The notes under the pieces are model-generated. The model did not search any database. It had not been told where the DNA came from and saw only the letters and a list, made by a program, of their open reading frames with translations. A stretch of DNA of 21,308 nt, counting the filler, from a bacterium (GTDB lineage: Bacteria; J088; JAWLBW01): NCBI GenBank assembly GCA_041690355.1. It is 2 parts of 2 records of this genome, joined end to end, with 100 filler letters (N's around TTAATTAATTAA, not from the genome) between each part and the next. Parts side by side here need not be neighbours in the genome. Positions count along the whole stretch, not along the records: positions 17,952 to 21,308 come from JAWLHK010000042.1; 1 more part is not named here. One strand, given 5' to 3'. Position 1 is the first letter of the stretch. Each line of letters begins with the position of its first letter. Both the position numbers and the translations under genes were made by a program. Below, in pieces: positions 16,600 to 21,308 of the stretch.

Positions 16600-17142
16600 T
16601 CAAACGGTGCGCTCGACCTGCGTAAAGTCGAGCTCGACGGGTGTGCTGCGGCCGAAAATGCTCACCAGCACCCGAACCTTGCCCTTTTCCTGATTGACTT
16701 CTTCGACCACGCCGTTGAAGTTGGCGAACGGGCCTTCGATGACCTTGACGTTCTCACCTTCTTCGATGTCGATCTTCACCTTGGGCTTCATCGTGCCCTC
16801 GGTAATCTGCTGATGGATGCGCTCGACCTCGCGGTCGGGCACCGGCGTGGGCTTGTTGCCCCCCAGAAATCCGGTTACACGCGGAATGTCCTTGATGACG
16901 TGCCAGATATTGTCCCGATCGGGACCATCCAGCTCGGCACGCACAAAGACATAGCCGGGAAAAAACTTCTGCTTGACGTTACGTTTGACGCCCTTGACGA
17001 CCTGGACTTCTTCCTGGGCGGGCACGAGCACGTCGGTGACCTTCTCCTCGAGACCGAGCTGCTTGATGGTCTCCTGCAGATGAAGGCGCACCTTGTTCTC
17101 AAAGCCGCTGTACGTATGTACGATATACCAGCGCAGTGCCAT
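16600..17142 (-). CDS. nusG: Transcription termination/antitermination factor NusG
   Basis: WYIVHTYSGFENKV, FFPGYV, VTGFLG, KOW motif GPFANFNG...VSIFGRSTPVEL. Confidence 0.99.
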   Translation of the reverse strand: MALRWYIVHTYSGFENKVRLHLQETIKQLGLEEKVTDVLVPAQEEVQVVKGVKRNVKQKFFPGYVFVRAELDGPDRDNIWHVIKDIPRVTGFLGGNKPTPVPDREVERIHQQITEGTMKPKVKIDIEEGENVKVIEGPFANFNGVVEEVNQEKGKVRVLVSIFGRSTPVELDFTQVERTV

Positions 17143-17149
17143 GCCGTCC

Positions 17150-17350
17150 TCAGCCGAGAATCTTTCCGAAGAGCCAGCTCACGAGGGCGTCGACGCCGAA
17201 CAGATAGAGGGCGACGACGATCGTGAACACGATGACGACCAGCGTCGACGCGGCAGTCTGCCGGGAGCCGGGCCAGGTCACCTTCTTCATTTCGGAAGCA
17301 ACGTCGCTCAGGAACTCCGTGCTTTTCTCAACCGGTGATGCCATATTCAT
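17150..17350 (-). CDS. secE: Preprotein translocase subunit SecE (single TM)
   Basis: FLSDVASEMKKVTWP plus one TM helix, between tRNA-Trp and nusG; start at 17350 or 17344. Confidence 0.96.
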   Translation of the reverse strand: MNMASPVEKSTEFLSDVASEMKKVTWPGSRQTAASTLVVIVFTIVVALYLFGVDALVSWLFGKILG

Positions 17351-17378
17351 CTCTGTTCTGGCGTTGTCGCCTGATAAA

Positions 17379-17454
17379 TGGCAGGCCAGGAGGGATTCGA
17401 ACCCACAACCCGCGGATTTGGAGACCGCTGCTCTGCCGTTGGAGCTACTGGCCT
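17379..17454 (-). tRNA. tRNA-Trp (CCA)
   Basis: 76-nt cloverleaf AGGCCAG...anticodon loop CTCCAAA...GGTTCGAATCC...CTGGCCTGCCA with encoded CCA end. Confidence 0.98.
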
Positions 17455-17519
17455 GTAATACCTAAACGATCCGGGCGTGCGCTGCGACCGCGGTGCGAGC
17501 CGCGGCGGCAGTACGCGCC

Positions 17520-17672
17520 TCAGACCTTGCCTTCCTTGTGCGGAGTATGGTTCCGGCAGAAGGGGCAGAACTTCTTGATTTCGAGTTTTTCCTTGGCCAG
17601 CTTCTTGTTCCGCGTCGTGTTATAGTTCCGACGCTTGCAGACGCCACAGGCCAGGCTGACGATATCGCGCAT
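17520..17672 (-). CDS. rpmG: 50S ribosomal protein bL33, zinc-binding (C+) type
   Basis: [50 protein letters not shown] (50 aa, below the ORF-track cutoff), with two CxxC motifs. Confidence 0.97.
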
Positions 17673-17851: not shown

Positions 17852-17951
17852 NNNNNNNNNNNNNNNNNNNNNNNNNNNNNNNNNNNNNNNNNNNNTTAAT
17901 TAATTAANNNNNNNNNNNNNNNNNNNNNNNNNNNNNNNNNNNNNNNNNNNN
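17852..17951. other. Artificial contig-concatenation spacer
   Basis: 44 N + TTAATTAATTAA (17896-17907; stops in all six frames) + 44 N. Confidence 0.97.
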
Positions 17952-19285
17952 GGCGAAAATCGGGATCCGTGCGGGTCATGGGGCTTCCGGTGTCGCTCTC
18001 CTCTTCAGGCTCGCGCAGCACGCCTGGCGTGCGTTTCCGCACGGGCCCGGGCGACTGCGGTGACTTCAGGTTGCCGCCGGAAGGCGTTTCGTTCCAGAGG
18101 AAAATGCATCGATTCGAGCGGATTCGGGCGGGGGCCCCCTCGCCGCGCGTCGGCCGTTCGGGTCGTTCGGGTCGTGTCCCCGGAGGTGGTGTAGCTCGGG
18201 GCGGTCATCGAGGTCCTCGGTAGGGTCGGATTGCTGAGCCAACCTGGACCGAGGAAAGAGCCCGATGACCAAGCCCACGATGGACCTTCGCGCGCTGGTG
18301 GAGAAGAGCGCGGACGCGGACCTTCTTCGAGAGATGATCGGCTTCGCGGCCGAGCGGCTGATGGAGCTCGAGGTCGGCGCGAAGACGGGCGCCGACTACG
18401 GTGAGAAGTCCGCCGACCGGCTGGCGCGGCGGAACGGCTACCGAGACCGCGACTGGCAGACGCGCGCCGGGAACGTGGAACTGCGCATCCCGAAGCTGCG
18501 CACAGGCTCCTGCTTCCCGTCGTTCCTGGAGCCCCGGCGGGCCGTGGAGAAGGCGCTGACGGCCGTGATCCAGGAGGCCTACGTCAGCGGCGTCTCCACG
18601 CGCGCGATGGACGATCTCGTGCAGGCCATGGGCGGGACGGGCGTCTCCAGGAGCCAGGTGAGCCGACTGTGCGAGGAGATCGACGAGCGCGTCGACGCCT
18701 TCCTGACCCGCCCCATCGAGGGCGAGTGGCCCTATCTGTGGATCGACGCGACCTATCTGAAGGTGCGCCAGGGCGGGCGCATCGTGTCCGTCGCGGTCAC
18801 GCTCGCCGTCGGCGTCAACATGGACGGCAGGCGCGAGGTGCTGGGCATGGCCATCGGCGCCTCCGAGGCGGAGCCGTTCTGGACTGAGTTCCTGCGGGAC
18901 CTGGTGCGGCGGGGCCTGAGCGGCGTGAAGCTCGTGATCAGCGACGCGCACGAGGGCATCAAGGCAGCCACGGCGCGGGTGCTGTCCACCACCTGGCAGC
19001 GGTGCCGCGTGCATTTCCAGAGGAACGCTCTGGCCCACGCCGGCAAGAGCAGCCGGCGCGTAGTCTCGGCCTTCATCGCCACCGCCTTCGCCCAGCCCGA
19101 CCACGGCGCCGCCAGCGCCCAGTGGCGGCGCGTGGCGGACCAGATGCGCTCCAAGCTCCCCAAGCTCGCCACGCTCATGGACGGCGCAGAGGAGGACGTG
19201 CTCGCCTACATGACCTTCCCGGCCCAGCACCGCGCGAAGCTGCACAGCACGGATGACATCGACAAGACCTTTGTGCCCTATTGTG

Positions 19286-20632
19286 CTACCCTTCCGTTGT
19301 GCGGTCGACCTCGTGGCGAAGCGCGACGTGTCGGCTGGAAGCGTCGTCGGGCGGCCCATCGAAGCCCTGCCGAGGTGAGGCGGCCGCACACCGGTTTTCC
19401 TCATCGGGGAGCGTCGTGCAGGCCGCACCGCGACTTGCTTTCGGACGCGGCTGCCAAGCGGCGACGAAGTGCTCATAGCTCTCCTGTGCCCGCTCCGCGA
19501 TCTCCATCTCCTGGTTGCGCAGCGTCTTGACGTTGTAGGCGTAGGCCGGACCGCGAGCATTGCCTTTTTTCTGCGGCTTCCCGGCGGCGAGTTCCATTTG
19601 GCGGCGCTTGTGGGCGACGAGGCTCGGCCGCGCCCATCGGTAGTCCTCGCCTTTTGCCAGCCTGTGCCAGCACAGGACGGCCAGTTTGCGCGCGACGGCC
19701 ACGGCGGCAATCTGGTGCCCTCTCTTCGCCCGCACGCGGATGAAGAAGCCCCGCAGCGGCCCCGGCGCCTTGGCCGCCGCCCAGGCTGCTTCGACCAGCA
19801 TCGCGCGGGCATGGCTGCGCCCGGACTTACTGATGCGGCCGTGATGCGCGGCGCCGAGACCGGACTGGCGAACCCGCGGGTTCAGTCCGAAGTAGCTCAC
19901 CAGCTTTTGGGGGCTTGCGAAGCGGTCGATGCTGCCTGTCGCCGCCATGAGCCCCGCGGCGACGGTCAGGTTCACGCCGGTGATCGTCAACAGGCGATGG
20001 ATGGCCTCGTCTTCCAGCGCGTCCTGCGCGATGTCGCGGTCCAGAACGGCGAGGTCTTCGCCCAGCCGGTCGAGCTCGCGGACGTGACGCTCGATTGCTC
20101 TGCGCTCGTCTTCAGGGAGCGGTTGCGCTGCCAACCATGCGCGCCCGCGCTTGTTGAAAAGGTCGGCATGCGGGCACTTGGGGATCAGATGTGCATGCAA
20201 GATCGCATGCACCTCGTTCTTGATCCTCGTGCGATGACGGACGACCTGATAGCGCCGGGCGACCAGCCGTCGAAGACGCTCGGTGGCCGCGTCAGGTGTC
20301 CAGATCTGCGGCAGGTAGCCGGCTGCATGCAGGTTCGCCAGCGTGCCTGCGTCGACCTTGTCGGTCTTCACATGAGCATGGGCGATGGCCTTCACTTGCA
20401 GTGGGTTGGCGATCACCACCCGCGCCACGAAGGGTGTGAGGATCCGCGACACCGCCATGGCGTTGCCGGTCGCCTCAATCACCACCTCATCCGTGGGTCG
20501 GAGTTGTCTCGCGAAACCCTCCAGCGCCGTCCGGGTCATGTCGACCCGACCCTCGTGGCGGGTCAGCCCGTTCTCCCAGATCACCACCTCCCCGAAGGTC
20601 CGGTGTATGTCCATTCCGATCACGCGTCGCAT
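19286..20632 (-). CDS. IS110-family DEDD recombinase/transposase
   Basis: RuvC-like DEDD: GMDIH, VIEATG, KTDKVDA. Tnp20 domain: [22 protein letters not shown] (conserved Ser), GRISKSG, AVARKL. SD AGGAGG. Confidence 0.96.
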
Positions 20633-20661
20633 GCGCGCCTCCTGCGTCTGTTTCGATAGAC

Positions 20662-20861
20662 GGGAGCGGCGGGCGACACGACAACTACGGATCCGTGCTC
20701 ACGGCACAACCGGGCGAGTCGCAGAGGCGGCCAGCTACTAACACGAGCTCGCAGCTCATCGTGTGCATCGGCCTGCCCGCACCTTCGTGCTCCCGGTGCC
20801 TCCGTCCCGGACGCTCGCAGCATACGCCAAGTCCCGAAGAACCCGGCCGGACATCGGCACC
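20662..20861 (-). ncRNA. Putative IS110 bridge RNA
   Basis: About 200-nt multi-branched fold in the non-coding end upstream of the recombinase, with two parallel internal loops that carry donor- and target-matching guides (see findings). Confidence 0.75.
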
Positions 20862-21308
20862 ACAGATGACATACCGGTTACCAACCCGATCGAACGGCTG
20901 AACGGCGAGATCAAGCGGCGCACCGACGTCGTCGGGATCTTCCCGAACGAAGCCGCCATCCGCCGTCTCGTCGGTGCGATCCTCATGGAGCAGACCGAGG
21001 AATGGGCCGTGCAGCGGTCCCGCTACATGACGCTGGAAACCCTAGCGCCCGTCGGCGATGATCCCATCGTCAGCCTCCCTGCCGCACAGGGCGACTGACA
21101 AGCGCGGCGCTGCCGAGGCCGTCAGGCCGGACGCCAGCTACACCACGCCATGGGACACGACCCCGACCAGTTCAGCGCTCGTTGGCAAAGAGGTTTGCGA
21201 TCCTGTTTGCCAATCAGTGTGGTAGACTGCGCAACCCCAGATCCATATGCCCCTCACGACACGCTTACGGTTCATTGGGCCGCAGTCCGGCGGGCACTGC
21301 CGCCAAGG

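Follow-up and report, generated by a model that had tools for sequence, protein, structure and literature searches.

Does the long non-coding end of an IS110-family insertion sequence lying in a bacterial contig encode a bridge RNA, and if it does, which DNA would each of its loops read? The question arises at positions 20662-20861 of a 21,308-nucleotide (nt) stretch of DNA (the window) from a bacterium of the J088 lineage (assembly GCA_041690355.1), which is made of two contigs joined by filler letters. An earlier note, drawn from the sequence alone, had described these positions as a bridge RNA on the minus strand, with a donor-binding loop that matches the reconstructed circle junction of an IS110 element at all 12 bases. 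With a probability of about 80%, we consider that positions 19251-20879 are an intact IS110-family element whose left end, upstream of the recombinase gene, encodes a bridge RNA, arm 1 of the RNA being the target-binding loop and arm 2 the donor-binding loop. The interpretation as an IS110 bridge-RNA system is supported by a recombinase of this family, by a conserved fold, and by covariation between arm 1 and the flanks of the insertions. The target loop, the reversed order of the guides, and the target in IS256-type genes are newly placed here.

The limits of the element (1,629 base pairs (bp) without the flanking core copies, minus strand) were set by comparison with 72 left ends and 70 right ends of relatives and with an intact IS256-type gene. 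The left end begins at 20879 (AACCGG...) and the right end finishes at 19251 (...CATCC). Both are bordered by the core dinucleotide GT, which occupies 20880-20881 at the left junction (AC on the plus strand) and 19249-19250 at the right junction; GT stands before the left end in 72 of 73 loci and after the right end in 65 of 69, with GA in the other four (L030, L031, L053, and L060). When aligned with the intact IS256-type gene of a Phaeobacter plasmid (L218), the empty site has a single AC and the insertion has AC at both junctions, as in a scarless insertion with a 2-bp core common to donor and target. The interrupted IS256-type transposase gene lies on the plus strand. Its 5′ part (18265-19250, ending ...KLHS-T) matches Pfam Transposase_mut (1.9e-101, profile positions 13-339 of 379) and NCBIfam IS256, and its 3′ part (20880-21098) covers positions 331-377 of the Transposase_mut profile and aligns with the same intact gene. 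The insertion point falls between ...AAG CTG CAC AGC AC and C AAC CCG ATC GAA..., that is, in the Thr codon of KLHS-T-NPIE. Beside the donor site, the family consensus has an imperfect subterminal inverted repeat of ~5 bp, CTCAT/ATGAG, which reads GTCAT/ATGTC in the window (by eye). One relative (L008, Roseovarius sp. 217; locus positions ~2815-2880 and 1230-1253) has the last 15-19 nt of its right end in three tandem copies, and its left end is preceded by GATCTCATCCGT, which resembles a right end-core-left end junction.

The recombinase gene (19286-20632, minus strand) encodes 448 amino acids that match Pfam PF01548 (1.4e-15) and PF02371 (4.9e-21) and, with 228.9 bits against a cut-off of 140, the NCBIfam model NF033542 (‘IS110 family RNA-guided transposase’). 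Similarity to the IS621 transposase (8wt6_A, E 1.1e-10) and to the ISCro4 transposase (E 1.6e-09) is distant. Its IEATG, KTDKVDA, and ISKSG motifs line up with those of ISCro4 and with the corresponding stretches of IS621, whose essential residues are D11, E60, D102, D105, and S241 (Hiraizumi et al. 2024, PMC11208158; here and below, statements on published systems follow the available parts of the cited reports). The candidate for the N-terminal Asp is residue 8, in GMDIH, outside the IS621 alignment. Taken together, the Pfam and NCBIfam matches and these motifs correspond to a DEDD (RuvC-like) domain followed by a C-terminal Tnp domain with the serine motif. Judged by its sequence, the recombinase is an IS110-family DEDD/Tnp enzyme of a long-transposase subgroup (~400-450 amino acids) far from IS621.

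Relatives for comparison came from three sources. Scanning one genome per species gave 396, and the best 80 of these were retained (74-86% protein identity, nearly all Alphaproteobacteria); a plasmid search added nine with 50-57% identity; and metagenome contigs scanned with a 15-nt motif returned 80 loci, 22 of them real elements and the other 58 chance matches. In the class to which G005 belongs, 401 genomes were sampled and a distant query matched 3 of them. Covariation was judged on a direct alignment of 72 distinct left ends from relatives with 50-86% protein identity, the left ends being 83-92% identical within the close subfamily, and the tests of guides against flanks scored unique pairs against 10,000 permutations. 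Related loci are not independent, so the covariation counts overstate the case somewhat. Four IS110-family elements with 34% identity to the recombinase of the element (L219-L222, from Rhizobium, Brucella, Allorhizobium, and Ensifer plasmids) were considered as relatives for a test of the AUCCGU strand of arm 2 and were set aside, as they belong to a different family and have almost no left end. They carry ~400 nt of conserved non-coding DNA downstream of the gene, an IS1111-like layout.

The left end of the element is a non-coding region of 247 nt (20633-20879, minus strand), compared with 35 nt for the right end, and its conserved fold contains two internal loops. Nine helices with 50 pairs were defined; 95.2% of their cells are paired in the 72 left ends, vs 33-48% with slid partners. 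Pairs changed on both sides number 21, vs 10.2 ± 1.3 in shuffles, and none of 500 shuffles reached the observed value. The structured region spans 20662-20861 (minus strand), from the 5′ strand of stem P1 to the 3′ strand of stem P2, these bounds being those of the helices and not necessarily the ends of the RNA. In the 5′ domain (20795-20861), P1 (GGUGCC, 20861-20856, with GGCACC, 20800-20795) surrounds two hairpins at 20848-20825 and 20823-20811, and helices 1-3 have changes on both sides in 3/6, 7/8, and 4/5 pairs. P2 (helix 4; GGGAGC, 20794-20789, with GCUCCC, 20667-20662) is 94.4% paired and has no pair changed on both sides, and P3 (helix 5; GCGGGC, 20780-20775, with GCCCGC, 20674-20669) is 99.1% paired with one such pair. 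P2 and P3 jointly enclose arms 1 and 2 in a three-way junction. All the stems, loops, hexamers, and coordinates of the earlier note were found to be correct on the minus strand, and the enclosing stems and the 5′ GGTGCC/GGCACC arm that it had described (helices 1, 4, and 5) are conserved in relatives. One left end (L049) has an insertion of ~50 nt between the two arms, just before a strand of the donor loop.

The sole variable stretch of the left end lies in arm 1 (20729-20773, minus strand), which consists of a GGCC/GGCC stem, a 5′ strand, the hairpin GAGCU-GCG-AGCUC (20757-20745), and a 3′ strand (helices 6 and 7). The 5′ strand AUGCACACGAU (20758-20768) is antisense to the core and right flank (GT GCTGTGCAG), with a score of 7.5/11 in the window. 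Among 59 unique pairs (66 loci), the mean score of this strand against the right flank was 7.45/11, vs 6.60 ± 0.12 when permuted (0 of 10,000), and among 15 unique pairs of distant relatives it was 6.97, vs 4.49 ± 0.42 (0 of 10,000), a set that takes in one mis-parsed locus and three low-scoring ISAtu7-like loci, apparently register-shifted by one base. The 3′ strand GUGUUAGU (20737-20744) has the same sense as the left flank and core (GGGTTGGT), with 6 of 8 letters identical in the window. In the close subfamily its match is one of consensus, at 6 of 9 positions, and in distant relatives (20 unique pairs, 24 loci) it scored 5.35/7 against the left flank, vs 4.33 ± 0.21 (0 of 10,000). The strands of the loop therefore covary with both flanks of the insertion, on opposite DNA strands, with no permutation reaching the score in three of four tests; the fourth, on the 3′ strand in the close subfamily, was null. 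Individual loci illustrate the pattern: L103 and L136 differ by matched changes in both strands of arm 1 and in both flanks, and the guide of L086 pairs at 11 of 11 positions, two of them wobbles. We accept this covariation in spite of the kinship of the loci because the flanks are not inherited with the element; its sole explanation is a guide of RNA or DNA. By this sequence evidence, arm 1 is the target-binding loop. The earlier note had left that loop unplaced; its claim of a bridge RNA is borne out by the flank covariation and completed by the position of the loop, 20773-20729. In the lineage of L029-L031 and L036-L040, CGUUG replaces CGAUG in the 5′ strand of the target loop. The 3′ strand extends past the core as AGCU-GG (20736-20729), or AUCU-GG in the relatives with 50-57% identity. 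If wobbles are allowed, this extension looks like the opening of the left end (AACCGG, ATCCGG), except in L083 and L089, and it may be a handshake-like extension or chance.

Arm 2 (20681-20722, minus strand) is the conserved arm of the two, and its arrangement is kept in 72 of 72 aligned left ends; in IS621, too, the second loop is the more conserved (PMC11208160; PMC11208158). It consists of the stem GCGACU (20722-20717)/AGUUGU (20686-20681), a 5′ strand CGCCCGGUU, the hairpin GUGC-CGUGA-GCAC (20707-20695), and a 3′ strand GGAUCCGU. Its two helices (8 and 9) are 96.3% and 99.7% paired. Two of the four hairpin pairs are changed on both sides, GUGC/GCAC becoming GCGC/GCGC in most relatives, a compensatory change; the outer stem is 96% paired without a double change, and RNAalifold favors the neighboring register GCGAC/GUCGU. 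The 12-of-12 match of the loop strands to the circle junction, the central claim of the earlier note, is real: CCGGUU (20708-20713) is the antisense of AACCGG, the six bases that open the left end (20879-20874), and AUCCGU (20687-20692) reads in the same sense as ATCC-GT (19254-19249), made up of the four bases that close the right end and the core. On the left-end side, the match is complete at 6/6 in the 58 loci that combine CCGGUU with AACCGG and in the 11 that combine CCGGAU with ATCCGG, 69 of 88 loci in total. ISAtu7-like loci have CCCG opposite CGGG, and because CCCG:CGGG is non-palindromic, the strand is fixed in that group. AUCCGU does not vary across the 72 aligned left ends, and the tip of the right end reads CATCC (66) or TATCC (4). 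The bases of arm 2 that match the ends occupy the same places, relative to the hairpin and the closing stem, as the guides of arm 1. From this position and the consensus, arm 2 is likely the donor-binding loop.

Several observations weigh against this reading of the locus. The earlier note had proposed folding 20633-20879, and thermodynamic folding did not single this region out, being no better than shuffles (z +1.31; z +0.09 for 20662-20794); the fold is supported by comparison with relatives instead, not by single-sequence energy. No Rfam match was found at E up to 1 in positions 19000-21308. The 3′ strand of arm 1 shows no covariation in the close subfamily (6.18 vs 6.19, with 6,780 of 10,000 permutations reaching the score), and two of its nine positions never match the target. 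In arm 2, two bases of the 5′ strand that would face the core belong to the stem of the hairpin, and the palindromic CCGG center does not by itself show which strand is read. Covariation of the donor loop with the junctions, which the earlier note had put forward as a check, gave one clean compensatory switch and little else. Indeed, AUCCGU and the tip of the right end are invariant in every locus, so this half gives no covariation test and its match could reflect two separately constrained motifs, and the CCGGUU side, over 15 unique types, scored 4.6, vs 4.5 ± 0.11 (2,301 of 10,000 permutations reaching the score). It is possible, albeit unlikely, that the RNA is a bridge RNA in which arm 1 carries the target guide, with AUCCGU and CCGGUU serving as protein-recognition or structural motifs and the ends being read through CTCAT...ATGAG or otherwise. 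The lack of a significant signal in the donor loop would fit such a role, as would the near invariance of the hexamers and ends down to 50% protein identity and the persistence of several mismatched lineages (CCGGUU with ATCCGG or ATCTGG, CCGGAU with ATCAGG). So would the pairing of CGG in the 5′ strand with CCG in the 3′ strand that RNAalifold places inside arm 2, which may leave the donor loop partly closed in the free RNA. What such motifs would not account for is that the matching bases of arm 2 sit at the positions of the arm 1 guides, that the two largest groups differ by a clean double change (CCGGUU:AACCGG vs CCGGAU:ATCCGG) with CCCG:CGGG in a third, that the equivalent loop of IS621 was shown to read the donor (PMC11208160; PMC11208158), and that a double match would arise by chance in only ~5 in 10,000 cases.

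Two further explanations would deny the RNA any guide role. The structure might be a 5′ leader that controls the translation or stability of the recombinase mRNA: it stands directly upstream of a Shine-Dalgarno sequence, AGGAGG (20643-20638, minus strand), is perhaps co-transcribed with the gene, and is followed by a small variable hairpin before the ribosome-binding site. We hold this to be very unlikely, as covariation with DNA beyond the element on both sides is not to be expected of a leader, nor are 12 bases of the circle junction. That the 12-base match and the stems are due to chance in G+C-rich sequence is hardly credible, even with a minimum free energy no better than that of shuffles. 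Both hexamers did occur somewhere in 62 of 20,000 dinucleotide-preserving shuffles of the left end (its terminal 12 nt removed), but they lay 6-30 nt apart in just 10 of 20,000, and chance would not keep the arrangement in all 72 left ends or produce 21 pairs with compensatory change. The register was freely chosen in the earlier note, so the real odds of the 12-base match are somewhat weaker than these counts. A bridge RNA with a target-binding arm 1 and a donor-binding arm 2 is the reading we retain.

The order of the two guides sets this RNA apart from IS621. In the target loop of the element, the strand 5′ of the hairpin is antisense to the core and right flank; its 3′ counterpart carries the sense of left flank and core. 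In IS621, each loop runs from stem to left guide, stem loop, and right guide, the bottom strand being paired by the left guide and the top strand by the right guide (PMC11208158; PMC11208160); the left donor is the tip of the right end and the right donor the start of the left end (PMC11208160; PMC11208158). The IS621-type order is found in neither loop of the element, which has the top-strand (right) guide first, the RNAs being compared here by description. As read from the sequences, the guide order is reversed relative to IS621 in both arms, as reported for the IS1111 seekRNAs.

In other respects, the element resembles IS621 and ISCro4 (Durrant et al. 2024, PMC11208160; Hiraizumi et al. 2024, PMC11208158). 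All have a DEDD/RuvC-like and a Tnp domain with the serine motif, an RNA encoded upstream of the gene in the long left end, a 2-bp core at both junctions whose second base is T, and −35-like and −10-like hexamers split between the right and left ends. However, the similarity of the proteins is merely E 1e-10, in the C-terminal half, and the recombinase has 448 amino acids vs 328 and 341. In contrast to the arms of IS621, which stand in a row, those of the element lie within two stems common to both, its donor guides are shorter (6 + 6 nt), and the core is GT instead of CT. The AC/GT core and the assignment to a subgroup differing from IS621, both made in the earlier note, were correct, but a GT core is not new in itself, since GT, AT, and TT cores also occur besides CT according to the IS621 structure paper (PMC11208158).

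The comparison with seekRNAs is similarly mixed. ISEc21, an IS110-type seekRNA system (Siddiquee et al. 2024, PMC11187229), is like the element in having its non-coding region upstream of the gene and short segments that match both strands of the target. It differs in that the top-strand match is 3′ of the bottom-strand match, whereas it is 5′ in the window element. The transposases of its group have 345-385 amino acids, whereas the element falls within the 395-455 range of the subgroup that contains IS110 itself (PMC11187229). The IS1111-family seekRNAs (ISEc11, ISPa11, and ISKpn4; PMC11187229) have the top-strand complement first, and the element shares this order of the two target matches. 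Nevertheless, the IS1111 family has its non-coding region downstream of the gene, long subterminal inverted repeats (7-17 bp), and transposases of 330-350 amino acids (PMC11187229), whereas the long non-coding region of the element is upstream and the inverted repeat in the family consensus is 5 bp (by eye).

The targets of the family appear to be other transposase genes. Among the close-subfamily loci, 69 have a left flank of sufficient length, and in 64 of these, translation of the flank from the core gives T-N-x-(I/L/V)-E of an IS256/Mutator-type transposase; several different IS256 subfamilies are targeted at the Thr codon of T-N-x-I-E. A distant relative, L086, is inserted in an IS6-type gene at its KYLNNI(I/V)E codons, and another, L084, in an IS21 istA gene according to the annotation. 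It seems that the clade directs its insertions to codons for conserved catalytic motifs in other transposase genes. L082, also a distant relative, is in an IS6-type gene as well, and relatives in IS21 istA and at a KGKVE-like motif fit the same target pattern but are less well checked. In two loci (L033 and L064), the left and right flanks come from different IS256 subfamilies, as if two insertions had recombined or one insertion had joined two elements.

The cores of the relatives with 50-57% identity raise a question about strand exchange. Their left junction is TT in 25 of 26 loci and their right junction GT in 15 of 16, the sixteenth (L089) being a mis-parse that reads GT by eye. Intact IS6-type targets (L223 and L224) read GATGTTG-TT-GAGGTATTT, and since TT stands in the intact targets, the left junction retains the core of the target and the right junction that of the donor. 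This pattern fits what is expected from exchange of the recombinase-sense strand 3′ of the core, and a top-strand transfer, consistent with it, has been described for CazIS110-1 in the available part of that report. The pattern is not the one that would follow from simply turning the DNA by 180 degrees in an IS621-like complex.

The ends of the element also carry candidate expression signals. A −35-like TTGTCG lies in the right end (19260-19265, minus strand), where 43 of 70 right ends have TTGTCG and 22 have TTGTCC, and a −10-like TATGTC lies in the left end (20868-20873, minus strand), where relatives have TATGAG (38), TATGAA (17), or TATAAG (11) of 73. Across the circle junction, the two are 17 nt apart, and by analogy with IS621 they may act as a promoter that is rebuilt when the ends are joined; counting against this, the TATGTC of the window is unique and the weakest among the 73. 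A 160-nt contig from a metatranscriptome library covers 20679-20836; as these libraries may contain DNA, such coverage is a weak hint and does not establish transcription. The contigs of two RNA-library and two DNA runs gave no joint at the ends of the element, whose uncovered parts are uninformative.

We propose the following course of transposition. Excision would join the ends into a circle reading ...CATCC-GT-AACCGG..., bringing TTGTCG to 17 nt from the −10-like hexamer, and the RNA would be driven from there. In arm 2, CCGGUU would pair with the six bases at the start of the left end, and AUCCGU would present the sense of the right-end tip and the GT core. In arm 1, the 5′ strand would pair with the top (recombinase-sense) strand of the core and right flank, and the 3′ strand with the left flank and core on the bottom strand. 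The recombinase and its RNA would then carry out recombination between the circle and a DNA site matching arm 1. For the element, the predicted target site is TCGATCGGGTTG-GT-GCTGTGCAG, and for the subfamily it would be the Thr-Asn-x-Ile-Glu codons of IS256-type transposase genes. As a more tentative generalization, which we regard as possible rather than probable, the long-transposase IS110 subgroup (the element and the ISAtu7-like and IS1328-like elements) might combine an upstream bridge RNA with the IS1111 guide order and recombine otherwise than by a plain 180-degree turn. The clade might live on other insertion sequences, its guides set to the catalytic-glutamate codons of DDE transposases (IS256-type, and IS6-type in one relative).

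The part of the window that bears the element is a separate contig of 3,357 bp (17952-21308), parted from the first 17,851 bases of the window by a run of N (17852-17951), and nothing but the IS256-type gene and the IS110 element makes up this contig. The two contigs are alike in G+C content (0.56-0.69). The element was found in no other genome of its own class (two species genomes) or phylum (five), and its close relatives, with left ends up to 92% identical to that of the window, are all alphaproteobacterial. Neither a second copy of the IS110 element nor a second IS256-type copy was found in the same genome, the IS110 element being present once, on the 3,357-bp contig. This contig may be a recent transfer or a binning contaminant. 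The other contig has nusG-like and secE-like open frames beside an apparent tRNA region at 16600-17650; these are ordinary and unrelated to the element.

With regard to earlier work, no statement of a reversed guide order in an upstream bridge RNA was found in the available parts of the bridge-RNA literature. No description of the RNA of this family was found in print for ISAtu7, IS1328, ISHne5, or ISPpu10, and the term ‘bridge RNA’ was not found among the papers listed in connection with IS900, IS117, IS116, IS1547, or IS901. Two sources may bear on novelty: Durrant et al. inspected six diverse elements including ISHne5 (Extended Data Fig. 10c, PMC11208160), and a 2026 preprint, available in part, reports 86 bridge-RNA covariance models, many of them ‘visibly deviating’ from IS621. 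Our analysis leaves the basic picture of 2024 unchanged, and large bridge-RNA surveys may already contain the family. There is a known precedent of one mobile element inserting at a conserved sequence of another, but the site there is a terminal repeat, whereas here it is a coding motif in a transposase gene.

Bridge recombinases are under development for programmable insertion, excision, and inversion of DNA, and mainly IS621-like orthologues have been characterized so far. A bridge RNA that lies upstream of its gene and combines the opposite guide order with a GT core and a three-way junction would broaden the range of possible designs, and the family would give a natural test of how guide order relates to the strand that is exchanged first. 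From a biological perspective, a guide set on the most conserved codons of a transposase would, if true, be a clear case of one insertion sequence parasitizing another, in which each insertion both disables a competitor and finds a conserved, multi-copy site.

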